IMG/VR virus record: IMGVR_UViG_3300020044_009834
Span: 1 to 62,234 of that record
From: a virus
Taxonomy: Duplodnaviria; Caudoviricetes
Length of the DNA: 62,234 nt
Direction: 5' to 3' (one strand)
The notes beneath the pieces were generated by a model that worked only from the letters and a program-made list of their open reading frames with translations, was not told where the DNA came from and did not search any database. Of the stretch, positions 6,773-58,147 are shown in pieces; the stretch's first letter is position 1; each line of letters opens with the position of its first letter. The position numbers were made by a program, and so were the translations under genes.

Positions 6773-6780
6773 TAGATTTG
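6773..6780 (+). promoter_or_regulatory. Bacteroidetes sigma -7 box
   Basis: TAGATTTG, intergenic, upstream of the scaffold/capsid genes. Confidence 0.65.
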
Positions 6781-21821: not shown

Positions 21822-24800
21822 ATGCCGGATTTAAAACAATCATTAAGAGATTTCGTAGCTACTTCAAATAGTGGCAAATATTCTACAGAAGAAGAGTTAT
21901 TATCTAAGTTCCCTGAATTGCAAGGATATGATATTCAATCATTGAAAGATTTTGTAGCTACTTCTAACAGCGGAAAATATGGTACAGAAGAAGAAGTACT
22001 TTCTAAGTTTCCTGAATTTGGACTTACTTCTGAAGACCCATTAAAAAAAAAAGAGCAAACACAACTCCCTACTCAGGGAAACGTGTCAGGTACTATGGGA
22101 TTACCTTCGGAAAGTACTTCTTCGGGTTCGCTAAAGCCATTTGATAAGAACGCACTTTTAGCTAAGGGGTTAAAGCAAACAACAATTGCTACCCCTTTAG
22201 AATCAGCACCTCAGAGTAAACAAGAAATTATAGATAATGCAAATTTTAGAACTCCAACAAACTTAACTTCTCTTCAGGCTATAAATAATGCTGCCCAAGA
22301 AAAAGTAAGAGTAGAAAAAGAAAAACTTGATTTAAGGAACCAAATATTTACTTACCAAACATTAAACCCTGAAACAAAAGGGGGTGGATATGCTGCGTTA
22401 GAAAATATCATTTTAGACCCTAATCAATCTGAAGAAAAAAAATTAGCTGCTCAAAAACAAAAGGAAACTGTAGATAAATATTTTCAATTAAGCGAGAAAA
22501 CAAAAGCCCTTAATGCTCGTATAGATAAAGATGAAACTATTAGACAAAAAGGTTTAGATGAAAGATATGGTTCTTATAGAAATACTACAGAATCATTCAA
22601 ATCTTATGGCATAAAAGGTGTAACAGGTTTTATGGGTATGCTGAATGCAATTGGTGGACAAGAAGATGAATTTAATTATGACAAATTTAAATCAATTTTA
22701 AAATCCTATGCAATTGAAAGTAGTATTACGTTATCTCCTGAGGAAAAAGAAAAACTTAGAAAAGACAACGAATATAATGATGATGGAAGTTTAGATGAAG
22801 AAGTTCGTACACAAAAAAGAGAAAAACTTGCAGTAGTAAATAAATTTGCTGATTCATTAATAACTCAAGAAACTCCTAAAAATTGGCAAAAACTTTTTGA
22901 AGGAGAATGGAGTGCAAATAGAGTAGGATATGTAATTTCTCAAGCATTTGGTCAAGTACTTCCAACAGTTGCAGCAGGATTTTTAGGAGGAGGAACAGGA
23001 GCAGTAGCAGCAGGAGCAGCAGGAGCAGGTATGGCATATAATGAAAGTTTTGATATGTTTGAGAAAGCAGGTTTAACAACTAGACAATCTGAATTAGCAG
23101 CTACAGCATTATCAATTCCTCTTGGTGTATTAGAGGCAATGGGTGTTTCTGACCTAGTAACCAAACCTGCATTTAAACTTCTACTGAAAGAAACAACAAG
23201 AGATGTTATTTCTAAATTAGCAACAAAAGAACTTACAGAAGCCTCTTTATTCTCATATGTAAAAGCTACAATGGGTCAAAAAATAAAAGAGTATGGTAAG
23301 GATTTAGTAATGTCGGGAGTAAAAGAGCCTTTGACAGAGATAGAGCAGGCTTTATTAAGTGAAGCAGCCGGTCAAACAGCAGAGGCATATACCGGTAAAG
23401 ATAGTAATAAAGACCAAACAATGGCTCAGTACCTAAAGGAATTAGGTCTTAAAGTTTCTGAAGAAGGTTTCTATGGTTTAGTAGGTGGTGTTGGAACATC
23501 AGCAGTTACTTCTGCTGTACAGAATCAAGCAAATCCAACTGCTTATGGCAGGGCATTAGAGTTAAAAGATGATGCTCTAATGAGTGAGTTTAAAAAGCAA
23601 TTAGACCGTGAGGTAAAGAAAGGTATCATTACTCAAGAACAAGCTGTTACAGCTGTAGAAAACGTACATAAAATACAAGCAGCCGACAATCAGATACCAT
23701 CTACAATAGAAGGTAATGAAAGAAGAAGTATGACTGCTACTTTGATACAAATAAAGCAGGCTTTAAAAAATGAAATAGAAGGTAAAGATAAGTCATTAAC
23801 CGGTCCTACTCAAGCAGCTATAGCTGATATTGATGTTAAACTAAATGAGATTGCAACAGGAGAAGATACCAAAACTGAACAAGTTTCTCCTAAAGGTGAA
23901 GGCATACTAGCTAATCCTGAGACTACAACTGCTGCATTAGAGGCTTTACCTCTTGAAGAAAAAACAACTGCTACATTTAAAGACACCAATGGTGATACAG
24001 TTTCTATTTTAGGAAACGAAAAAAAATTATCAGATTTGTTCCATGAAGCGCAATCAACTCCGGAAGATAAACGTACAGAATTCCAACAGTCTATAATAGA
24101 CACAGTAGAAGTGTCCTTAAAGACACCATTAGATTTAGAGACTGAAGTATCAAGACTTGAGTCTGAGTTTGGTCTTGATAAACAAACAATAACAGAGGCA
24201 GATACAGCTATTTCTCAGCTTTCAGACAACGAACAAGTTACAGAAACTGTTACTTCACTTGATGATGTTCCTGTTCAATTTAGAGATAGAGTTACAGTAA
24301 ATAAAACAGAGGGAACTCCTAAAAGAAAAAGATTCTTTGGTATACCATATGGTAAAGAAGTTAAGGGTCAAACAAAAGAGACTTATACTTACACAGCAAC
24401 AGGAAAAGAAATAAAAAGTGCGTATGCTGCAACTAAACAACAAGTAGGAGCAGCACCAACTACAGATACCGGTGTGTCTGCAACAAACAAGTCTTCTCTT
24501 GATACTTTAAAAGCAAAGACTACTGATGCTGTTAAACTAAAAGTTGTAGAATCAGCACAAAGGGCAATAAAAACTTTACAGTCTGTTATGCCTAACTTTG
24601 ACATTGTTGTTCATGAAGATGAAGGAAGTTACAATGCTGCTGTTGAAAAAACAGGAGGTAAGCAAAATACGAAAGGTAACTTTAATGCTGTTAAGAATGC
24701 TGATGGAACCTATTCAGGAAGAATAGATATAAACTTATCAAGAGCATCAACTACAACTGTAGCGCACGAGGTGGCACATGGTATCATGTTACAAGCCTTT

Positions 24801-27800
24801 GGTGACAAACCTGCTTTGTTTAAAGAATTCAGAAATAAAATATCAACTGTTTTAAAGCAAAGTACTAATGATAAATTGATTGCATTTGCAGACCAATATA
24901 AGACAGATGTTACTTATGAAGAGTATCTTGCTGAGTTAACAGGTTTATTAGAGCAAGAGCAAGCTAATATCTCACCTACTACACTACAAAGGATTGCTGC
25001 TATTATTAATAAACTTGTTTCAACTTTATCAGCAGGTCAAATAAAAGTATTTGAAGATTTAAAAAATACTAAAGATGTAATTGATTTCTTTAGCAATGTA
25101 TCTCAAGCCATAAAGGGGGGAGAAGCTATTCAGTTTTTAAATGAAACCCAAGCCTATGGTGAGGGTTTAGCAATAAAAGTACCCTCTGATTTTGTAGCTA
25201 CAAAGTCTAAGAAACTATCTGCTAAGAGTCAGATTGGAGACTATGTTATACCATCTAAATATGTTGGTAAGGATGAGTTTGATGTTTTGAAACTAGGGGA
25301 AGTTCCGGTTAAAAATCTTACAGACCTGATTAAACAATACGAGGGAAGAGTAGTTATTATCACGAGTGATGCCACAGGATACGGTGTAGATTCTGATAAC
25401 GAACCGATACTAGGTGGTTATGGATTTGCTAACAATGCAAAAAATATAGAGGATGGAATTGGATTTGCAAGTTTAGGTGTTGGAACTGTAAAGGGTGCTT
25501 ATACTGCTGCTGAAAAAGCATATGGTCAGGGTAAGACTCTTGTTCTTATTATGATTCAACCACCTCATACCACTATAAACAACTCTTATGGTGCTAAGTA
25601 CTTAATGAGAGCAATGCAACAACTTGGAACGCTATCACCTAAAAAACTAGCTGAAGCTAAGGAGTCTATAAAAAAATTTATCAATAACTCAAAAGCAATG
25701 CAAGATGAGTTAAAAGCTGAAGAAGAAGCAGCTGAAGAAGAAGCATTAGCAATAAAAGAAGCAAAAGAAAAAGGGGAAGAAATTAAAAAATCTGAAGCAG
25801 GAGCAAAAAGAAGAACATCTAAAGTTGAATTATTTAAACTTATTGATAGCATTCAGCCTAATTCAAATTTAAAAGAATTAACTGATGCTTATTTAAACTG
25901 CACTACATTTAATACAAGAAAGTATATAGGAATGGGTGTTTTATCTGAACATAAAGATGTACAAACAAATGAAAAAACAACAAAAAGTAAATTATTATTT
26001 CGTGAAGTTGGTGCTACTATATATGATTTCTTAAAAGAATATGGCGACCAATCATTCTTAACAGAAGATATGATGCTTAATAATGTTGGTGGATTTACTG
26101 TAGGTGGATTTGAGTTAGATGTTACATCTGTAGAGGAAAGAGAAAAACTAATTGAAGAAATTCAAACTAAAGGAATTCTGCATCCATTATTTAATGGTAA
26201 ATTACCGGGTACAAATCACTTTATTTTAGATGGTGTTTATGATGTTCAAGAAAACTTTGGTGAGTTTGCAAGACCTGAAAAGGGAATTGATATGTCTACT
26301 CAGTTGGATAAGGTAACAGCAAAAGAAAGAAAGGCTTGGTTTGATGAATTTATAACTAAAAAAGATGCAACTACAACATCAGGAATTGGAATAGACCGAG
26401 CAAAATTTAAAAAAGAATATAGAAAACTACCTAAAAAAGAACTAAAAGAAGAATATTTTATAGATAAGGTAAAACCATCTTTTCAAAATGGATTAGAAAA
26501 CATTGTCAGAGATAAGATGTCAAGAAAGTATTTTGAAAAATTAGCTAATGGTAATAAAGATAAATTAAACAGTTTTTATTTAGCGAAAAATAGAGATGTT
26601 GACCCATCTAAAAGGACATATAGTATGTTATCTGCACCTAATAAAGTTAATTTTAAAGATACATATCTTGCCCCAAAAGGATTACTGAAAGATGTTGCGA
26701 CTCATGTTCCAACTAAAGTTGCAGGGGGAATTGGGTTTATACCACAAGAGGGTGCTGCCGAACGAATGGCACAAACTGAATTTAAGAAGAGTGAAAAACT
26801 AACACAACAAAAAAATGATAAAGAAAACAACGCAGGGGTACAAAGTAACCTCGGAAAAGGGCAAGAATCTAAGCAAGCCAAATCTAACAAAAGCGCAAGC
26901 AGTAAAAAGATTAGCACAAGTGGAGATGTTCAAGCATATGAAGAAGAAGTAACTGCATTAGAGCAATCTTTCCCAATCAATAAGTCTCAGGTAGATGCAT
27001 GGCATGGAAGTCCACATTTATTTGATAAGTTTACCACAGAAAAAATAGGAACCGGTGAAGGCGCACAAGCATTTGGTTGGGGTCTTTATTTTTCTGATGT
27101 TAAAGGTATAGCACAAGCATATGCTGATAGATTATCAGCAATAAGTATACAAGCAGAAGCTATTGCTCAATTTGTTTATGGAACAGGATATACAAACGAA
27201 AATATACAAGATATTGTATCTAAAAGTGTTGATGAAAGAATAAAACTCATAAATGATGCATATGATAAAACAGTAAACAAAATAAAATCTTCTATAAACT
27301 ATGAAAAGGCTCCTGATTTTGCAAATGAAATAATAGATAATCAAACTAAATTAAAAAATAGATACATAGAACAAGCAAAAAGTAATGCCGGTCGTGTATT
27401 ATATAAAGTATCACTTCACCAAGGGAAAACTCCTGAGCAATATAATTGGGTAGAATGGGATAAACGTATAAAAGAACAGACTTTTGATAAAATAAAAAAA
27501 TCTTTAGGGGAAAAAGGATATCAAATTAAAAATAAAGAGAATCAAGGTTTTCATTTATATTCAAAAGAAGGTTTATTATTAGGCTATTATAATATGTATG
27601 ATAGTGGACAAGAATTATATTCGGAATTAGATAAAACATTAGGCAGTCCTCAAAAAGCTTCTTTATTTCTACTTGAGAATGGTATTGATGGTATTAAGTA
27701 TCCTGCCGAAAGTATATCTCGTGGTGCAACTAGTGATACTGCAAGAGGTTCTAACTATGTGGTATTTGATGAGAATGCTGTAACTGTTAACGCAATCAAT

Positions 27801-30800
27801 AAATCTCAAGAAGATGCAGTAAAAACTATTGATAGAATGGTTAGAGATGCTAGAGGTCAAGGTTTCTCTGAAGAGGCAATTGCAATATTCTTAGAAAGAA
27901 ACGGTTTTACTGCTCAGGAAATAGAGGAAGTAATGGATACAGAGTTAGGTGCATCTAAGCAAATGGTATTATCAGAAGAGACAATGCCGGGCTTTGATAA
28001 GATGATGGCAGCTATAAATAAGGCAATCAAAAAAGATAAAGCCTTGACAACTGTTCCAAACAAAGATATCTTGAGTCGTATCATGAAGTACTTAGCAAAA
28101 CAAGATACATATAAGAATGCTACAGATGTACAAAGAGAAAAGTTAGTTCGTGACATCAGAAAGATAATTGGTATCAGAGAGAAAGCAGTTAAGAATCTAA
28201 GTACTACTCTTGATAAATTTGAAAGATATGATGCATCCCATGGAATAGATGTTACCTTAGGAAATATTGTTGACCCAAATAATATTACCATGACTGAGAA
28301 GGAATTACTTATCAAGCAAATCAAAGACTATGCAAGAGGTGCTAGGGATGTAAAAGCTGCTTGGGTAAAAGCAAGTGCTGAACTTACTAAAGACATCAAG
28401 AATATGATGAAAACAGGTAAGATATCAGTTAAGCAAGCAGCAAGTATTGTTCGTAGATTTAGTGCTGTAAATGTATTCAGCGAGAAGTCTATTGGCAAGT
28501 TTGTTGACTATATGACTAAGGTATTTAATGATGCCGAATATGTAAACCAATTATCTATAGCGCAAAAAACTAAAAAGGCTATTGCATCTTTATCTAAAAA
28601 TCAAGATAGAAATGCTAACCTAAGAGAGTTAGGGAAGAAGTTTACAGAGATAGACCCATCTATGGTGGATGATATCTATAAGTACAATACTGTAGCAGCT
28701 GCTATTTATGAAGCTATTTATGGTTCCAAACTAACTAGTGAAGGACCAAAATTTGCTCAAACTATTAATATAGAATCAGTTTCTAAGTATGTGGATGAGA
28801 TGGTTGAATCTCAAAATAAGAAATTATTAGATGAAAAGATTGCTGAAATCCAAGAGTTATTAGGCATTGATGCATCTAAGTTTACTCCTCAGGAAATAAA
28901 AGCTTTATTAGAAAATACACAAACAATAAAGAAAAGCAATGAGGTTGCTATCAAGGATTCTATCAAAAAAATGTTTGGTATATACTCTACTCTTATCAAG
29001 GAAACCATAAGTAGAGGAACTGATTTGTTTACCGGAGAACCAAGGAACTTTACTAAGCAACAAAAAGAATTGATAGGCAGATTCATGGCAATGGACTTGA
29101 ATAATTTAAATGCAAAACAGTCTTTAGCTGCCGTTGATAGTCTTATAAATTTCTTCCAAAATGATTCTACCGCTAAAATGGAAGCTGTTCTATCTGACTA
29201 TACAGCTATGGAAAATACCAAGACTCTAATAGATAAAAACATAAAAAGTTTAAGATTAAGCAAATGGTTTAGTGATGATTTTGGTAAACTTTTAGCAGAA
29301 CAAACTTATAACTTACCAATGTTATTTGAGAGAATGTTTAAAGGAGTGGGTCGTGGTGCTTATGTTCAAAAGATGTCAGGCTTAACTAAACTAATAAACA
29401 AAAAATCTTTAGCTGTTTCTGAATCAAATGCCATTGTAGAAGAGTACGTTAGTCAGTTCTATAAGAAAGAAGCCAATGGAGAGGCTTTCAACACATCTGA
29501 AAATAATGTAGAAAGAGGTATGGCTGCATTTATGATGAGAACATTTGTTGGAAGCGAAGAAAAAATGCAAACTGAATTCAATAGAAGGAAGGGATTAGTT
29601 AAACAGACCATTGATGTATTATCAAAAGGTAATGATGAAGAAAAAGTAAAAGGAGAACTATATCAAAAAGTATATGATAAGATTTTTTCTGTTGCAAAAA
29701 ATCCATTAAGTCCTAATCAAGTATCAGGAACTGAACCACAAAATGCAAAAGAAATAGCAGAAAGAATAGATAAGGTTAACTTAGAAGCTATTCAGTTTTG
29801 GCAAAATGCTTGGGGTGATAAATTTGATAAGTTAGCCGATGTTTCTTTAAATGTATACAATAAAGTACTAAACAAAGAATTAAACTACATCCCTGATAAT
29901 CTAAGAAAATTAGCTTCTAATAGTAAAACAACAGATTTACAAAGTACCGCAGCGATGAATGAATCATCATTTCATCACAACAATAATTCATTGTATGATA
30001 CGGAAGCAGGTGTTTTACAAACTCCTTCATATCCTATAGAATTACCTACAGATGATAAGAATAACAGAACTAATAGAGTAGTTGATTTCTCATTTGATAG
30101 TAATAATGCCAACTCTATGTATGATGCACTTGTGGATGTAAACACCGCAGCTGCTGTAAGACAAGTTGATACTTTTATAAATGGCGATGACTTTAATAAA
30201 ATATTCAATATAGAAGATGGAGAAATGTTGAAGGATAGAATAGAAGGTTATGTAAGGAATATTAGAAGTAGAAATATTTACTCTCAAGATGAGTTCAGTA
30301 AGTTTGCAAAGGCTCTTAATAAAGTGGCTGCAATTGGTGTAGGTCAAGCATTAGCCGGTCCAACTCAGACTTTAAAACAAGTTATACCTGTTGCGTTTAA
30401 CACATTAGTAAATGCTCAAAATTTAGATGTAATTTCTTCTTTGAATTCTGACTTTCAAACTTGGTTAGGAGAATCAGGCTATGCTATTGGTACAAGGGGA
30501 GTAAAATCTCAAGCTGATATTGAATCTTTAAATAAATTAATAAAAGAAGATGCTAAAACCGGAGGTAAAAAAACACTTGAACTTGTGCTTAAAGCCAATG
30601 AATGGTGGTTACAAACTTTCTTAGTTTCTCCCGATGTGTATATTGCTAAAGCATCTTGGAAGTCTTACTATGAAAAGAGTTTGAGACAACAAGGTATTGA
30701 CACAAAGAATTTAGATTATAGTAGCCATACTTTAAATGAAGATGCAGCCGATTATGCTCAGAGGATGGTCGATAGACAACAGAACGTATCTGATGCTGAT

Positions 30801-31745
30801 TTAAATGGATTCTTATTTACAAATAAAGAAGCAAGCAGACAAATACTTGTAAAGATTTTCATGCCTTTTGCTAACTTCAGAATGAATCAGGCAGCTAGAT
30901 TAGGCTCAGATATAAATGTACTTACAAGCAAAACATCTACAGTAGAAGACAGAAGAACTGCTGCATTATCTTTATCGGGATTTGCTGTAGAGATGGCTGT
31001 ATTTAAAATGTTATCAGGTGGTCTTGTATATTTATTTGGTTCACTTACTAAGTGGCTTATGGATGATGATGAAAATAAAGAGGAAAGAAAGAAAAGAAGA
31101 GAAAGTATTATAAAAGGTCAAGCTACATCAGCAGTTGCAGATATACTGTCTCCTGCTCCTCTTTTAGACCCTATTTTACAGTATGGTGCAGCATATGCAC
31201 TAGCGCAAACTCAGCGTATGTTAAAAACAAAAGAAAAAGATGTAGTATCTTTATACGAACCAAAAGCCAAAACTATTGCGGAGCAGTATGGTTTGTTTGG
31301 TATTCCTCTTATCAGAGCAGCACAATTAGGTGAAATGACTATGTTAGCTTACAATGGTATTTATAAAGATGATTATGGAAGAGAGAGAAAAATAAGTAAA
31401 AATGACCAAGAACTTATTGGCAATATGATTCCACTTGCTCTTCTTACAAATATTGGATTAGCACCTGTAGAAGTAAATACAGTTATGAGAAATACAATCA
31501 AGTTTGCTAAGAAAGGTTCTAAGACTATAAAATCTGTAGATAGAGAAAAGTCTAACGATTACGGTATATACGATACCAAGGAAGATTTAAAAAGATACGA
31601 CCCAATTTTATATGAAGAAAAATTCGGTAAGAACTCTGAAAACTATCTTGAAAATGAAGAAGAAAGAAAAGATAAAAAAGAAGAGAGAGATTTGAAGAGA
31701 GCCGAAAAGGATGCTAAGTATGGATATGTTCCAAAAGTAAAATAA
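21822..31745 (+). CDS. giant polyvalent virion protein with zincin-like metallopeptidase and ADP-ribosyltransferase-like domains
   Basis: 3307 aa; duplicated 33-aa N-terminal repeat; Gly/Ala hydrophobic helices; HEVAH at ~24765; WHGSPH.FDKF...GTGEGAQAFGWGLYF...DGIKY...NYVVFDE at ~27000-27780. Confidence 0.8.
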   Translation: MPDLKQSLRDFVATSNSGKYSTEEELLSKFPELQGYDIQSLKDFVATSNSGKYGTEEEVLSKFPEFGLTSEDPLKKKEQTQLPTQGNVSGTMGLPSESTSSGSLKPFDKNALLAKGLKQTTIATPLESAPQSKQEIIDNANFRTPTNLTSLQAINNAAQEKVRVEKEKLDLRNQIFTYQTLNPETKGGGYAALENIILDPNQSEEKKLAAQKQKETVDKYFQLSEKTKALNARIDKDETIRQKGLDERYGSYRNTTESFKSYGIKGVTGFMGMLNAIGGQEDEFNYDKFKSILKSYAIESSITLSPEEKEKLRKDNEYNDDGSLDEEVRTQKREKLAVVNKFADSLITQETPKNWQKLFEGEWSANRVGYVISQAFGQVLPTVAAGFLGGGTGAVAAGAAGAGMAYNESFDMFEKAGLTTRQSELAATALSIPLGVLEAMGVSDLVTKPAFKLLLKETTRDVISKLATKELTEASLFSYVKATMGQKIKEYGKDLVMSGVKEPLTEIEQALLSEAAGQTAEAYTGKDSNKDQTMAQYLKELGLKVSEEGFYGLVGGVGTSAVTSAVQNQANPTAYGRALELKDDALMSEFKKQLDREVKKGIITQEQAVTAVENVHKIQAADNQIPSTIEGNERRSMTATLIQIKQALKNEIEGKDKSLTGPTQAAIADIDVKLNEIATGEDTKTEQVSPKGEGILANPETTTAALEALPLEEKTTATFKDTNGDTVSILGNEKKLSDLFHEAQSTPEDKRTEFQQSIIDTVEVSLKTPLDLETEVSRLESEFGLDKQTITEADTAISQLSDNEQVTETVTSLDDVPVQFRDRVTVNKTEGTPKRKRFFGIPYGKEVKGQTKETYTYTATGKEIKSAYAATKQQVGAAPTTDTGVSATNKSSLDTLKAKTTDAVKLKVVESAQRAIKTLQSVMPNFDIVVHEDEGSYNAAVEKTGGKQNTKGNFNAVKNADGTYSGRIDINLSRASTTTVAHEVAHGIMLQAFGDKPALFKEFRNKISTVLKQSTNDKLIAFADQYKTDVTYEEYLAELTGLLEQEQANISPTTLQRIAAIINKLVSTLSAGQIKVFEDLKNTKDVIDFFSNVSQAIKGGEAIQFLNETQAYGEGLAIKVPSDFVATKSKKLSAKSQIGDYVIPSKYVGKDEFDVLKLGEVPVKNLTDLIKQYEGRVVIITSDATGYGVDSDNEPILGGYGFANNAKNIEDGIGFASLGVGTVKGAYTAAEKAYGQGKTLVLIMIQPPHTTINNSYGAKYLMRAMQQLGTLSPKKLAEAKESIKKFINNSKAMQDELKAEEEAAEEEALAIKEAKEKGEEIKKSEAGAKRRTSKVELFKLIDSIQPNSNLKELTDAYLNCTTFNTRKYIGMGVLSEHKDVQTNEKTTKSKLLFREVGATIYDFLKEYGDQSFLTEDMMLNNVGGFTVGGFELDVTSVEEREKLIEEIQTKGILHPLFNGKLPGTNHFILDGVYDVQENFGEFARPEKGIDMSTQLDKVTAKERKAWFDEFITKKDATTTSGIGIDRAKFKKEYRKLPKKELKEEYFIDKVKPSFQNGLENIVRDKMSRKYFEKLANGNKDKLNSFYLAKNRDVDPSKRTYSMLSAPNKVNFKDTYLAPKGLLKDVATHVPTKVAGGIGFIPQEGAAERMAQTEFKKSEKLTQQKNDKENNAGVQSNLGKGQESKQAKSNKSASSKKISTSGDVQAYEEEVTALEQSFPINKSQVDAWHGSPHLFDKFTTEKIGTGEGAQAFGWGLYFSDVKGIAQAYADRLSAISIQAEAIAQFVYGTGYTNENIQDIVSKSVDERIKLINDAYDKTVNKIKSSINYEKAPDFANEIIDNQTKLKNRYIEQAKSNAGRVLYKVSLHQGKTPEQYNWVEWDKRIKEQTFDKIKKSLGEKGYQIKNKENQGFHLYSKEGLLLGYYNMYDSGQELYSELDKTLGSPQKASLFLLENGIDGIKYPAESISRGATSDTARGSNYVVFDENAVTVNAINKSQEDAVKTIDRMVRDARGQGFSEEAIAIFLERNGFTAQEIEEVMDTELGASKQMVLSEETMPGFDKMMAAINKAIKKDKALTTVPNKDILSRIMKYLAKQDTYKNATDVQREKLVRDIRKIIGIREKAVKNLSTTLDKFERYDASHGIDVTLGNIVDPNNITMTEKELLIKQIKDYARGARDVKAAWVKASAELTKDIKNMMKTGKISVKQAASIVRRFSAVNVFSEKSIGKFVDYMTKVFNDAEYVNQLSIAQKTKKAIASLSKNQDRNANLRELGKKFTEIDPSMVDDIYKYNTVAAAIYEAIYGSKLTSEGPKFAQTINIESVSKYVDEMVESQNKKLLDEKIAEIQELLGIDASKFTPQEIKALLENTQTIKKSNEVAIKDSIKKMFGIYSTLIKETISRGTDLFTGEPRNFTKQQKELIGRFMAMDLNNLNAKQSLAAVDSLINFFQNDSTAKMEAVLSDYTAMENTKTLIDKNIKSLRLSKWFSDDFGKLLAEQTYNLPMLFERMFKGVGRGAYVQKMSGLTKLINKKSLAVSESNAIVEEYVSQFYKKEANGEAFNTSENNVERGMAAFMMRTFVGSEEKMQTEFNRRKGLVKQTIDVLSKGNDEEKVKGELYQKVYDKIFSVAKNPLSPNQVSGTEPQNAKEIAERIDKVNLEAIQFWQNAWGDKFDKLADVSLNVYNKVLNKELNYIPDNLRKLASNSKTTDLQSTAAMNESSFHHNNNSLYDTEAGVLQTPSYPIELPTDDKNNRTNRVVDFSFDSNNANSMYDALVDVNTAAAVRQVDTFINGDDFNKIFNIEDGEMLKDRIEGYVRNIRSRNIYSQDEFSKFAKALNKVAAIGVGQALAGPTQTLKQVIPVAFNTLVNAQNLDVISSLNSDFQTWLGESGYAIGTRGVKSQADIESLNKLIKEDAKTGGKKTLELVLKANEWWLQTFLVSPDVYIAKASWKSYYEKSLRQQGIDTKNLDYSSHTLNEDAADYAQRMVDRQQNVSDADLNGFLFTNKEASRQILVKIFMPFANFRMNQAARLGSDINVLTSKTSTVEDRRTAALSLSGFAVEMAVFKMLSGGLVYLFGSLTKWLMDDDENKEERKKRRESIIKGQATSAVADILSPAPLLDPILQYGAAYALAQTQRMLKTKEKDVVSLYEPKAKTIAEQYGLFGIPLIRAAQLGEMTMLAYNGIYKDDYGRERKISKNDQELIGNMIPLALLTNIGLAPVEVNTVMRNTIKFAKKGSKTIKSVDREKSNDYGIYDTKEDLKRYDPILYEEKFGKNSENYLENEEERKDKKEERDLKRAEKDAKYGYVPKVK
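24111..24126. promoter_or_regulatory. GTGTC-N6-GACAC palindrome (inside giant gene)
   Basis: GTGTC CTTAAA GACAC. Confidence 0.7.
26815..26952 (+). CDS. 45-aa basic protein nested in the +1 frame of the giant gene
   Basis: MIKKTTQGYKVTSEKGKNLSKPNLTKAQAVKRLAQVEMFKHMKKK*; A-rich leader; the host frame here is a low-complexity linker. Confidence 0.65.
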   Translation: MIKKTTQGYKVTSEKGKNLSKPNLTKAQAVKRLAQVEMFKHMKKK

Positions 31746-40838: not shown

Positions 40839-40926
40839 TGGTCAGGATAGGATTCGAACCTATATGATGTATGCCTATCTAAAGTCATATTATCTTCTAA
40901 TGCGTTTACCATTCCGCCACCTGACC
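40839..40926 (-). tRNA. tRNA-like RNA with class II (Leu-like) body and no canonical anticodon arm
   Basis: Acceptor GGTCAGG/CCTGACC-A, D arm GCGGAATGGTAAACGC, T arm ATAGGTTCGAATCCTAT; the middle cannot form a 5-bp/7-nt anticodon arm. Confidence 0.75.
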
Positions 40927-49172: not shown

Positions 49173-49199
49173 TTTTGCATTCTGCCAATATTTCAAAGA

Positions 49200-49850
49200 A
49201 CGTCAAAATCAATGTGAATTTCGTAGGTCATCCCTACTCCGACAAGGCTTTCGAACGATTGTAGTATATATATAGTATAACTGTCTCTCAATCGCAGTAC
49301 AATTATCGTATAAATATATGAGACTGCAAAATGACTTATGTCATATTGTGTCTTGGATGCTCGAAAGCCTTATGGCTGTAGGGGAAAAATTTTTTTAAAA
49401 GTATGTTCTAAGTTATATGTTAGATTAGTCTAACATTGGTTACCTCGCCGTTGAAAGGCTGAAGGCGACAGTAAATACTGATGTCTCGAGCGATTCTGCG
49501 CTGTGAAACGATTTTTACTAGGGAAATGATATTATACTACAGCTATTCAATACATATACATGAGCATTCATGTATATGTATATTCATTCATGATTCATAT
49601 ACGACAGCAAAGCTATAGCTACAGCATGACAGCAAAGCTATAGCTACGACATAGAACTACAGCTAGACTACAGCCATGCTAACAGGTAACAAGGCAGTGC
49701 TAACGTGCTGACAGCCATGGAATTGCCAAAAATTTGTGTAGCGATTTTCCATTTTTGACCCCCCCCCCTCGAAAAAATAGTCATTTCCGGAGCGCAGTTC
49801 GTGGCGCAAAACCCCATAGTACCCAAACACTACACATATCTAATAAAAAA
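49200..49850. repeat. non-coding divergent region with inverted and tandem repeats; probable genome end/packaging region
   Basis: Imperfect IR CCCTAC..AAGGCTTTCGA / TCGAAAGCCTT..GTAGGG; 14-bp hairpin 49550-49581; GACAGCAAAGCTATAGCTAC x2 with CTACAGC echoes; C run at ~49758. Confidence 0.6.
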
Positions 49851-49853
49851 TAC

Positions 49854-49861
49854 TAACTTTG
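49854..49861 (+). promoter_or_regulatory. Bacteroidetes -7 box
   Basis: TAACTTTG. Confidence 0.55.
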
Positions 49862-49888
49862 CCGAGTACAAATAAAATAATAGCTATT

Positions 49889-52799: not shown

Positions 52800-53057
52800 A
52801 TGAAACCAATAGGGAAATACATAGTCATCAAGTCAATTGATGAAGAAATCAAGACACAGTCGGGTCTGTTTTTATCAGGAGAGGATGCAAATCAGATGAG
52901 GTACAAGAAAGGTAAGGTCATTGAACCGGGAACAGAAGTTCGTGGTATAGACTCAGGAGAGTTTATCTATTATGATAAGACAAATTCTTTTACCATGCTA
53001 ATAAGAGATGAGCAGTTTACTATTATTCAGGAGCGAGATGTCGTTGTTGTTTTATAG
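52800..53057 (+). CDS. groES: co-chaperonin GroES
   Basis: MKPIGKYIVI, KTQSGLFL mobile loop, GKVI..G, ERDVVVVL. Confidence 0.92.
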   Translation: MKPIGKYIVIKSIDEEIKTQSGLFLSGEDANQMRYKKGKVIEPGTEVRGIDSGEFIYYDKTNSFTMLIRDEQFTIIQERDVVVVL

Positions 53058-53100
53058 TTTTGTTCATTTCTATAATAAAATTCCTGTAGACCTTATCGGT

Positions 53101-53466
53101 TTAAGACACGTTCTTTAGGAACATTGGATTATTACTAGGACCCTCAGGAATTTCTTCACCATTTAATTTTTTGTAGATTGAATCTACTACACGAAGGGCT
53201 TTGTATGATAATTCATATAGAGCCTTTCTATTTCCCATCCTTCTTCTGAAGACAACAATCCAACCATCTTTCAGTAGGGTACCAAATCGTTCAGCATCCC
53301 AACTGATAAGAGCATCAAACTCATCAAATTTTTCTTTGCTAAAGTATCCTTCTGAATAAAGGAACAAAATAACATCTAAGTCTGATTGGGTTAGACCGTA
53401 CTTTACTTTTATAAAATGGCGAATTACTCTCCAATATTTTAAATAGTCTTTTGGAATTGATTTCAT
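53101..53466 (-). CDS. winged-HTH-like protein, possibly truncated by a premature TAA
   Basis: YGLTQSDLDVILFL...LLKDGWI...LYELS; the frame stays open for 25 more codons, to TAA at 53023. Confidence 0.65.
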   Translation of the reverse strand: MKSIPKDYLKYWRVIRHFIKVKYGLTQSDLDVILFLYSEGYFSKEKFDEFDALISWDAERFGTLLKDGWIVVFRRRMGNRKALYELSYKALRVVDSIYKKLNGEEIPEGPSNNPMFLKNVS

Positions 53467-53481
53467 TTAATTAAATTTGAT

Positions 53482-53500
53482 TACATTTGCTGCAAAGTTA
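53482..53500. promoter_or_regulatory. face-to-face -7 boxes
   Basis: TACATTTG (+, 53482-89) and TAACTTTG (-, 53493-500). Confidence 0.6.
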
Positions 53501-55796: not shown

Positions 55797-56084
55797 ATGG
55801 AAAAATCACAGATGAAATGCAATAGCCCTGTGGCTTCAAACAGACCGGGCAAGAAGAAGATGGTAAAGGCTTGCTCAAATGGTGAGGAGAAATTGCTTCA
55901 TTTTGGTGCCAAGGGTTATGGAAATAATTATTCAGCAGCAGCAAGAAAAAGTTTTAAGGCAAGACATGACTGTGCCAATGCAAATGATAAATTAACTCCA
56001 AGGTATTGGGCTTGTAAGAACTTATGGGCAGGACCGGGAGGTTCAACAACACCAAATCCAAAAGGAAGAAAGGGGAAATACTAA
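55797..56084 (+). CDS. small basic phage protein
   Basis: HFG..G ... ARKSFKARHDC ... PRYWAC..LW. Confidence 0.75.
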   Translation: MEKSQMKCNSPVASNRPGKKKMVKACSNGEEKLLHFGAKGYGNNYSAAARKSFKARHDCANANDKLTPRYWACKNLWAGPGGSTTPNPKGRKGKY

Positions 56085-56296
56085 TGAAAGAAATGATTAA
56101 AAGAAAAGATGGCTCTGTTTCTCAGAGAGGACTTTGGGATAACATTAGAGCAGCAAAAGGTTCAGGAAAAAAACCGACAGCAGCTATGCTAAAGCAAGAG
56201 AAAAAAATAACTAGCGAGGCAAAAAAGTACGAATCTAAGAGTTCATTGAACGGAAAGATGAAGATGCTAAAAGGCAATGTTGGAAAAACTAAATAA
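56084..56296 (+). CDS. small basic phage protein
   Basis: MKEMIKRKDGS.SQRGLWDNIR; TAATG coupling. Confidence 0.7.
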   Translation: MKEMIKRKDGSVSQRGLWDNIRAAKGSGKKPTAAMLKQEKKITSEAKKYESKSSLNGKMKMLKGNVGKTK

Positions 56297-56350
56297 TATT
56301 TTTGTATTATTGCAGTCTATTATATATAATAACTTAAACAAATAAACAAA

Positions 56351-56524
56351 ATGGCAAAAATTAAAAGTACACCAAACTTACCGGCATCATCAAGAATGCA
56401 AATGCCTAGTGGTGGAGGCAACATGAAAGGTACCGGTAGCATGACAGGAAAAAAAGGCAACGCTACTAAAAAAGTAATGGCTATGGCTTCAAAAGGTAAA
56501 TCAATGTCTAAAAAAGCTTGTTAA
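56351..56524 (+). CDS. small Lys/Met/Gly-rich protein
   Basis: MAKIKSTPNLPASSRMQMPSGGG...KKAC*; A-rich leader; not in the track. Confidence 0.65.
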   Translation: MAKIKSTPNLPASSRMQMPSGGGNMKGTGSMTGKKGNATKKVMAMASKGKSMSKKAC

Positions 56525-56528
56525 GATT

Positions 56529-56669
56529 ATGGCAAAAAAATCAGCATTAATTGAAGAAACTCCGGAAGAAGTAACTATTGTAGAGTCAACTCCGGTAGAA
56601 GAAGTAACTGAGGTTACTGAAACAGAAAAACCTTACGAAGGTCACTACAGCAGAGATTTTCGTGCTTAA
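56529..56669 (+). CDS. small acidic protein
   Basis: MAKKSALIEETPEEV...EGHYSRDFRA*; followed by a terminator; not in the track. Confidence 0.65.
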   Translation: MAKKSALIEETPEEVTIVESTPVEEVTEVTETEKPYEGHYSRDFRA

Positions 56670-56672
56670 AAT

Positions 56673-56917
56673 TAAAGGAGTCTAATTTGGCTCCTTTTTT
56701 TTTACTAAAGACTATAAACCAAAAGAGGTCAGCTTGCGCTAACCTCTTCTATAGTATCCCCGAAGGTCTTACCTATAGGGTTTAGAGTATCAAAAGTCAC
56801 AAGTAGATGACTAGGAGAGACTCAAGGAGAAGTAGATACTTTCCTTACCGTTTTCCGGACAAGCCGGGTTTCGCTTACATATGGAACTGCTACTTTAGTA
56901 ACCATCTTGGCTTTCGT
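56673..56917 (-). ncRNA. candidate ~240-nt structured non-coding RNA
   Basis: TATATTTG box at 56924-31 (-); closing helix UUACUAAAG/CUUUAGUAA; several hairpins with UUCG and GCAA loops on the - strand; GC-richer than the flanks; no convincing ORF. Confidence 0.7.
56674..56703. terminator. bidirectional terminator
   Basis: AAAGGAGTC TAATT TGGCTCCTTT followed by a T run. Confidence 0.8.
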
Positions 56918-56979
56918 GCGGAGCAAATATAATATTTTTAAATAAAAAAATGTAAATAAAAACAATAAATAAATATTGT

Positions 56980-56987
56980 TATATTTG
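56980..56987 (+). promoter_or_regulatory. Bacteroidetes -7 box, divergent from the ncRNA promoter
   Basis: TATATTTG. Confidence 0.6.
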
Positions 56988-56996
56988 CAAAGAAAA

Positions 56997-57176
56997 ATGA
57001 AAATAACTTACCACGATAAGAGCAAAGGTTTGGGTGACACGATAGAAAAAATAACTACCGTGACAGGAATCAAGGCTGTGGTCGAAAAAGTTTCAGAGGT
57101 AACAGGTAAAGACTGCGGATGCAGTAAACGAAAAGAAAAATTAAACAACGCATTTCCATACAGACAAAACAATTAA
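56997..57176 (+). CDS. small protein with GLGDT...DCGC motif
   Basis: ATG start MKITYHD. Confidence 0.7.
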   Translation: MKITYHDKSKGLGDTIEKITTVTGIKAVVEKVSEVTGKDCGCSKRKEKLNNAFPYRQNN

Positions 57177-57180
57177 AATC

Positions 57181-57639
57181 ATGATGTTTCCAAAAAAAGG
57201 TATTAACCAACAAGCAAAAGAACTTTCAAAAACAAATAAAGGTCCTGTAGAAGAAGCAGGGTCATATGGTAGGGGTGCTAATAAAGTAGGACCTAGGTCT
57301 TATAAACGTGATTTACCTGTATCATCTGTAAAAGAAAATGGTTCAAAAAGTATTGTAAAAGGAACTACTTCTTATAATTCAGAAGGAGGATATTATAGTG
57401 ATTCTAAAAGTCCGGGAGTAAATAGAACTCCTGAAAAAGGTCAAAGCAATAAAACTGTAAGAACTTATGAAGGAGGTAAACTTCGTAGCGTAGAAAAACA
57501 AGGTACAGATATTTTAGGAAGACCTAAAAGTAAAGTAAAAACTTATGGTGATGATTCTAAAGTATATAAAGAAAAGAAAACTTTAGTTGGTGGAAAAATC
57601 AAAAACAGAGATTATCCATTAGCTGAATCTAATTTTTAA
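57181..57639 (+). CDS. basic low-complexity protein
   Basis: 152 aa; RSYKRDLPV and KNRDYPL echo. Confidence 0.6.
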   Translation: MMFPKKGINQQAKELSKTNKGPVEEAGSYGRGANKVGPRSYKRDLPVSSVKENGSKSIVKGTTSYNSEGGYYSDSKSPGVNRTPEKGQSNKTVRTYEGGKLRSVEKQGTDILGRPKSKVKTYGDDSKVYKEKKTLVGGKIKNRDYPLAESNF

Positions 57640-57658
57640 ATAAATAAAAAATAAAGAT

Positions 57659-58147
57659 ATGTCAAATCAGATACTTCAAGCAGGTAGAGCCTTAGCAGTA
57701 ATACCTTCAGATAACGCAAGAATACCTTATCCACAAGTAGTGGTTTCAGGTTCAAACGAAGACCCTGCAACTAACTTATTAGTTGACCCTAATACAAATG
57801 ATTTTACAACAAGTGGTGTTGCTACAGGTGATGTTGTATACAATATAACAGCGCAATTAGCAGCTACAGTTGTTAGAGTAATAGATGCATTTACAATAGA
57901 GTTAAATGCAAATATTTTTACAACTATAGGTGATGAATATATTATATACCAACAATCACCTCAAACAGGAGGTGGAAACCAAGGATGTGTATTGTATGTA
58001 GGTGGAACAGGAGATTTAGAAGTAGTAACAACAGGTTTTGATGATGTTACTTTTTTTGGAATAATTGGAGGTTCATTTATACCTGTTCATGTTGTACAAG
58101 TAAAATCAACACTTACTTCAGCAACAAATATTATAGCCCTTTGGTAA
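57659..58147 (+). CDS. probable virion structural protein
   Basis: A.AVIPSD...LYVGGTGDL.V...FIPV.V..V....T.AT.IIALW with an inserted module. Confidence 0.6.
   Translation: MSNQILQAGRALAVIPSDNARIPYPQVVVSGSNEDPATNLLVDPNTNDFTTSGVATGDVVYNITAQLAATVVRVIDAFTIELNANIFTTIGDEYIIYQQSPQTGGGNQGCVLYVGGTGDLEVVTTGFDDVTFFGIIGGSFIPVHVVQVKSTLTSATNIIALW

Follow-up and report, generated by a model that had tools for sequence, protein, structure and literature searches.

A discrete insertion in the late gene region of a probable Bacteroidota podophage, tentatively interpreted as a moron-like unit for a small structured RNA

Phage morons were first described in HK97 and HK022, and in the published description they appear as extra DNA relative to related phages, with a deviating GC content and with a promoter and a terminator of their own (PMC3594210). 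Small and antisense RNAs have been mapped by transcriptomics in several virulent Pseudomonas phages (PAK_P3, phiKZ, LUZ19 and others), and the portion of that work drawn on here describes their function as unknown (PMC10914365). Structured RNAs have also been surveyed in IMG/VR, where at least three matching regions were required and the motifs spanned 29–151 nt (PMC10690425).

Here we describe a cassette carried by a phage whose genome, 62,234 bp long, is available as a complete virus record in IMG/VR, the whole of which is referred to below as the window. Like the morons, the cassette is extra DNA between two genes of the late-operon region, with a deviating GC content and promoter- and terminator-like signals, and in these respects it matches the published description as far as the cited part goes (PMC3594210). 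It differs from classic morons, which are protein-coding and expressed from the prophage, in that its product, predicted from the sequence, is likely to be either an RNA or a peptide of 27 residues, and in that it is oriented antisense to its neighbours. The phage is not known to be temperate; no match to an integrase was found among the proteins scanned (a subset of the phage ORFs), but a repressor-like gene is present at 53101–53466. The RNAs of the Pseudomonas phages, in the portion of the report cited, are akin to the cassette in size (about 90–210 nt), in that some are antisense with a start site of their own, and in their occurrence in late regions (PMC10914365). Most of them, however, arise by processing of UTRs or overlap genes, and they belong to phages of other hosts and have RNA data behind them (PMC10914365). 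In sequence they show no relation to the cassette. The IMG/VR candidates resemble the cassette in being intergenic structured RNAs of uncultured phage contigs from a similar collection, but an orphan of about 200 nt such as the cassette would not pass the survey's criteria as set out there (PMC10690425).

The gene set of the phage includes a P22-like portal, a large terminase, structural proteins, a 3307-aa ORF, a GroEL/GroES pair and a primase-helicase, the last of which shares 75% identity with its counterpart in the uncultured podophage MW202828.1 (GenBank). The 3307-aa protein is encoded by a single ORF at 21822–31745 (+ strand), and its counterpart in MW202828.1 is a CDS of 3859 aa with an evidently automatic annotation. 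Matches to the primase-helicase were obtained in 21 phage records, and because 16 of these are phages of Flavobacterium, Nonlabens, Polaribacter, Cellulophaga, Maribacter, Tenacibaculum or Bacteroides, infecting Flavobacteriia or other Bacteroidota, a Bacteroidota host is likely. The promoter signals agree with such a host: boxes of the form TAnnTTTG lie 5–46 nt 5' of the ATG in many of the phage genes (examples are those at 6773, 10233, 18580, 40076, 40476, 50476, 53806, 56297 and 56980). We regard the phage, a freshwater one, as a 62-kb podophage whose host, among the Bacteroidota, is probably Flavobacteriia-like.

The cassette lies in a spacer of 327 nt (56670–56996), preceded by a + strand gene ending at 56669 and followed by a + strand gene starting at 56997; the genes adjoining the spacer encode small basic proteins of 46–59 aa. 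The downstream gene (56997–57176, + strand) specifies a 59-aa protein with a nearly invariant KGLGDTIEKIT motif and a CGC motif, which has at least 527 confirmed relatives in metagenome contigs (the best 80 being 61–92% identical), belongs to no Pfam family and gives a weak PHROG match to a family of unknown function. The segments 56024–56669 and 57230–57427 together constitute a variable hot spot: the three small basic genes at 56024–56669 are missing from MW202828.1, and among near-identical phages there are differences in the form of an insertion of 27 nt at 56587, a deletion of 21 nt at 56603 and replaced stretches within 57230–57427. Elsewhere in the + strand late block, a 121-aa gene (53101–53466) lies on the opposite strand behind its own TAnnTTTG box (53493–53500), and its product is 54.5% identical to that of a MW202828.1 gene annotated 'repressor protein'; antisense-oriented units thus do occur in this block.

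Contigs (Logan) of four sequencing runs (X1, X2, X11 and X20) were aligned to positions 55800–57800. In a contig of X1, position 56703 was joined to 56971 with 19 other letters between them, the flanks showing 5 differences over 436 nt upstream and 1 over 112 nt downstream, and an identical joint was found in X2. In the main contig of X11 (depth 60.5) position 56673 was joined to 56979 by way of a different terminator. Altogether, the contigs without the cassette (X1, X2 and X11) had flanks that were about 96–99% identical to the carrier. The metagenome contig L091, with 90.7% nucleotide identity over 226 nt, likewise passes from the terminator through about 20 nt to the conserved promoter with the cassette absent, and in MW202828.1, which is without the entire 56024–56996, the cassette is also absent and the homologues of 55797–56084 and 56997–57176 are only 22 nt apart. 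The cassette was absent as well from 80 metagenome relatives of the downstream gene (56997–57176), among which the gap between the previous called ORF and that gene was at most 195 nt in 79 and less than 90 nt in most, compared with 327 nt in the carrier; the spacer of 244 nt computed for L091 is a contig-edge artefact, being about 105 nt by eye.

The segment absent from the close relatives (the contigs of X1 and X2, X11 and L091) is therefore 56704–56970. As the 19 letters of X1 and X2 look, by eye, homologous to 56951–56970, the true insert is about 56704–56950, and this takes in the promoter box described below, the whole of the predicted RNA and both arms of its closing helix. The cassette is thus a discrete insertion without counterpart in near-identical phages, which suits a stand-alone accessory gene. 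The element itself was seen in X11 only among the four runs aligned, in one contig of 181 nt (depth 3.1) that covers 56664–56844, including the junction and part of the element, unchanged; hence the carrier genotype was present in that run at low depth. In every listed sequencing run, fewer than half of the words sampled from the stretch were present, and the carrier genotype looks rare.

Base composition also sets the cassette apart, the core having a GC content of 41.9% and the whole insert one of 38.9%, where the genome has 33.6%; in the further non-coding gaps listed (90 nt or longer) the values run from 13.6 to 37.6%, below the core of this computed GC island. Absence from the same site in close relatives and a deviating GC content, both used in the recognition of morons, were therefore both found here.

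An insertion of this kind could be an inert scar, left by illegitimate recombination and under no selection, in which the promoter-like and hairpin features would be accidental or decayed, for example old terminators. We think this rather unlikely, but it has to be treated as a serious rival: the element is an orphan with no relative in the collections searched, its surroundings are the variable hot spot described above (the gap in MW202828.1, the indels at 56587 and 56603, and 57230–57427), and the carrier genotype seems rare. A − strand frame also bears a weak likeness, around GDTIE, to the N-terminus of the neighbouring protein family, but with 3.7 bits and E 0.02 over six frames the resemblance is at chance level, and it was rejected. 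Such a scar would not be expected to have a GC content above that of every further listed non-coding gap of 90 nt or longer, nor a perfect −7 box at one edge with a terminator-like hairpin near the other, nor a closing helix whose end falls within 2 nt of the insertion boundary; a strand asymmetry of 12 kcal/mol with z-scores of −3.7 to −4.1, as detailed below, is likewise uncommon for junk.

The initial annotation of this DNA had proposed a stand-alone unit on the − strand with a −7 box of its own, and the box was confirmed: a Bacteroidota-type motif, TATATTTG, is present at 56931–56924 on the − strand. The neighbouring + strand gene has a −7 box of identical sequence (56980–56987, serving the ATG at 56997), which stands back-to-back with the putative cassette promoter and is kept in L091. 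The TATATTTG motif is not enriched genome-wide (9 found, 7.9 expected), and the same region can alternatively be read as a sigma-70-like promoter on the − strand (56929–56956), in which TTTACA and TATTAT are separated by a 16-nt spacer and 10 of 12 positions match. From the position of the −7 box, transcription is predicted to start near 56918 on the − strand. The contigs of X20, presumed to be an RNA run, gave only low-complexity A-rich pile-ups at 56924–56975.

At the other end, the terminator that had been assigned to the RNA serves mainly the + strand genes upstream. This hairpin (56674–56697; 9 pairs and a T-run) lies outside the insert, scores as an intrinsic terminator on the + strand only, and is common to the X1 and X2 relatives that lack the cassette. 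The − strand has instead an internal terminator-like hairpin at 56751–56720, with 14 pairs, a GCAA loop and a pair probability of about 1.0, followed by UUUUGGUUUAU, and the 3' end of the RNA is probably near 56712, at this hairpin and its U-tract.

The folding potential of the cassette was calculated for 56702–56918, a range that leaves out the flanking terminator. The − strand (217 nt) gave −68.1 kcal/mol (z −3.70; none of 200 shuffles as good), and the + strand −55.8 kcal/mol, with a z-score of −1.28 and an equally good value in 19 of 200 shuffles, so that the − strand is the stabler by 12.3 kcal/mol. This asymmetry points to structure at the level of an RNA transcribed from the − strand rather than to DNA palindromes, and a strand-specific fold had indeed been part of the original proposal. 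In the modelled fold the excess structure is confined to the 3' 110 nt (56821–56712), for which the − strand gave −37.1 kcal/mol (z −4.06; 0 of 200 shuffles as good) and the + strand a z-score of −1.08, whereas the 5' 97 nt (56918–56822) were no more folded than their shuffles (z −0.02). The structured 3' domain is predicted to comprise three hairpins, at approximately 56823–56785, 56780–56758 and 56755–56711.

Closure of the RNA by its ends had also been proposed. In a 228-nt transcript, UUACUAAAG (56901–56893) and CUUUAGUAA (56710–56702) form a 9-bp helix with probabilities of 0.7–0.9 for eight of the nine pairs and 0.25 for the outermost, and the end of the 3' arm falls within 2 nt of the insertion boundary at 56703/56704. 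This helix would form only with read-through past the internal terminator; since a transcript that stops at 56712 (z −3.75) is predicted to be closed by another long-range pairing, the helix cannot be called robust. Several of the hairpins that had been pointed out were well supported in the 228-nt transcript, namely AGAGGUUAGC-GCAA-GCUGACCUCU (pair probability about 1.0), AAGGA/UCCUU (0.8–1.0) and AGUCA/UGACU (0.97–1.0). The three-way junction envisaged around UAAACC/GGUUUA and CUAUAG/CUAUAG, on the other hand, had a pair probability of about 0.0, the CCGG/CCGG hairpin one of 0.05, and the UUCG tetraloop was absent as a loop from the minimum free energy (MFE) structure; the best completion of the multi-branch model reached −59.7 kcal/mol against −65.9 kcal/mol for the MFE, so the model was not the favoured fold. 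The 8-mer AUCUACUU is present twice, as had been noted, but as 485 of 2000 shuffles also contain such a repeat it is not beyond chance and carries no weight. Thus, the idea of a stand-alone − strand unit was upheld as regards its own −7 box, its strand-specific fold and its nature as a discrete insertion, but not as regards a three-way, multi-branched architecture.

In a scan of 3102 windows across the genome, the element ranked about 8th to 13th for GC-corrected stability, the stabler regions being 53001–53228 and two large regulatory gaps. The former (+ strand) has the strongest fold of any window in the genome, at −71.2 kcal/mol and z −7.33, a stability that none of 200 shuffles equalled; it runs from the end of the GroES-like gene (52800–53057) across a convergent gap into the 3' portion of the − strand gene at 53101–53466, and contains a 16-bp hairpin at about 53193–53228. 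A non-coding gap of 708 nt (49181–49888), from which the − and + strand blocks diverge, contains several of the top-folding windows together with tandem 25-nt repeats (49603–49652), a perfect 14-nt palindrome (49550–49581) and 23-nt inverted repeats (49232–49254 and 49361–49383), and is a candidate origin or control region. At 40839–40926 (− strand) Rfam called a tRNA of 88 nt (48.7 bits), in whose sequence the D and T arms are separated by a long insert; ARAGORN called no tRNA in the record.

The unstructured 5' part of the predicted transcript contains an ORF of 27 codons followed by a TGA stop (MVTKVAVPYVSETRLVRKTVRKVSTSP; 56905–56822, − strand), with its ATG 18 nt after the −7 box, and together with its 13-nt leader this ORF corresponds exactly to the stretch that has no excess structure (z −0.02). 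The cassette may therefore be a moron for a small protein, that is, an mRNA for a 27-residue basic peptide in which the three downstream hairpins would be a 3' UTR and terminator; we consider this rather unlikely, and it too has to count as a serious rival to the RNA reading. The distance from the −7 box to the ATG is within the 5–46 nt range of the phage, an A is present at position −3, all of the excess structure lies 3' of the stop, and the neighbouring genes also encode very small basic proteins (46–59 aa). An open frame of 27 codons is ordinary at the GC content of the cassette, however (simple arithmetic gives about 5.6 stops per 89 codons, and the best of the six frames has 3), and the leader is 61% GC (11 of 18 nt) where those of the real genes of the phage are A/T-rich, which counts against efficient translation. 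A 3' UTR of about 110 nt with two additional stable hairpins also exceeds what a terminator needs. No PHROG or Pfam family matched, and the searches for protein relatives found none over the 30–116 aa that they covered, a range in which a peptide of 27 aa is invisible.

The − strand frame of this ORF, with its two TGA codons read as X, matched no PHROG or Pfam family and no protein relative among proteins of 30–116 aa. In 14 relatives, − strand ORFs diverge from the homologous gene beside them; they have the look of shadow ORFs and bear no relation to the cassette.

The location of the cassette, exactly between a + strand terminator and a + strand promoter, might suggest an element that works on the + strand or as DNA: an extended terminator, an insulator separating two late operons, the 5' leader of the downstream gene, or a site for protein binding or replication. 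Inverted repeats can be read on both strands, and when the terminator is included the + strand of the resulting 259-nt stretch reaches a z-score of −2.64. This interpretation nevertheless seems very unlikely to us: once the flanking terminator is left out the + strand fold is unexceptional (z −1.28, equalled by 19 of 200 shuffles), relatives do without the cassette, and, because the + strand promoter lies 3' of the element, the element is outside the leader of the downstream gene.

In retron msr-msd RNAs, some 200 nt with several hairpins are closed by inverted repeats at the two ends, as in the cassette, and both retron RNAs and the packaging RNA (pRNA) of phi29 type are broadly similar in outline to a phage-encoded RNA of this length. 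With its closing inverted repeats and several hairpins the cassette might thus be a member of a known RNA class, whether an Rfam family, a retron RNA, a CRISPR-repeat mimic or a packaging RNA, but this reading is largely refuted and we regard it as exceedingly improbable. Rfam (release 15) gave no match in the region at the gathering score, in keeping with the earlier statement that no family could be assigned. At E≤10 there were 8 weak matches, all on the + strand and none on the − strand, the best of them (E 0.65; 22.9 bits against a threshold of 51.4) lying over the terminator. A retron was ruled out since the phage, unlike retrons, has no reverse transcriptase, adjacent or elsewhere (PF00078, 0 matches in the phage record). 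As for a CRISPR-repeat mimic, each short match in the sampled Bacteroidota genomes stands alone, outside any array, and a packaging RNA should not be dispensable, yet near-identical phages exist without the element.

Searches for relatives of the element gave only the element itself. No sequence homologue was found with nhmmer and blastn among 169 loci, and no paralogue within the 62,234-nt record. A single-sequence covariance model of the element (R1) matched only its own source when run against 91 related loci and the carrier itself, 80 pattern-derived loci, the L310 contig and 5 whole phage records. Exact probes were drawn from five parts of the RNA: the four used against viral contigs found no true match, their sole hit (L310) being a 20-nt chance match in a GC-rich contig, and the one used against genome contigs had 0 matches. 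A two-motif pattern gave at least 116 chance matches, none of which was confirmed by R1 in the 80 loci examined. Among 401 Bacteroidota genomes sampled evenly over the phylum there were 4 matches of 20–30 nt, at chance level (per-genome E 0.004–0.006). Potential base-pairing targets among 90 start regions of the phage were no better than those of shuffled RNAs, the best duplex having −34.3 kcal/mol against a mean best of −33.5 kcal/mol (sd 2.4) for 40 shuffled RNAs.

Taken with the computed presence/absence polymorphism and the computed promoter and terminator motifs, these results lead us to prefer, tentatively and short of real confidence, the reading of the cassette as a moron-like accessory transcription unit that would specify a − strand RNA some 200 nt long, open in its 5' part and folded in its 3' domain into three stable hairpins, with a terminator at the end. 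We infer that the cassette is transcribed, that its RNA has ends close to those given above, and that it may have some function. The unit would have been acquired horizontally, as a self-contained whole, and inserted downstream of the terminator that closes one late + strand gene group, ahead of the promoter of the following group. Host RNA polymerase would use the −7 box at 56931–56924 to transcribe the − strand from about 56918, and the transcript would end at the internal hairpin and U-tract near 56712, any read-through stopping at the shared hairpin (56697–56674). The resulting RNA would consist of two parts, a loosely folded 5' stretch of about 95 nt and a 3' stretch of about 110 nt made up of three stable hairpins, the last of which is the terminator. 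Since the transcript overlaps no gene, it would act in trans, most likely as a regulatory or decoy small RNA in which the open 5' part or the hairpin loops might contact a partner of host or phage origin. The role as protein sponge, scaffold or anti-defence RNA suggested by the initial annotation is a guess. A more elaborate version, in which a mobile 'RNA moron' is gained and lost by freshwater Bacteroidota phages and its three hairpins serve to decoy an RNA-binding protein of the host with a defence or regulatory role, altering the host strains that can be infected, is a long shot.

The element is a single orphan sequence, and its worth is that of a well-delimited candidate, not of a discovery. 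Little is known of the non-coding RNAs of Bacteroidota phages, and if the cassette is expressed it would provide a clean natural case in which an accessory gene of a phage yields RNA and not protein. As carrier and non-carrier genotypes coexist in lake samples, they would offer a ready comparison for testing the role of such RNAs.
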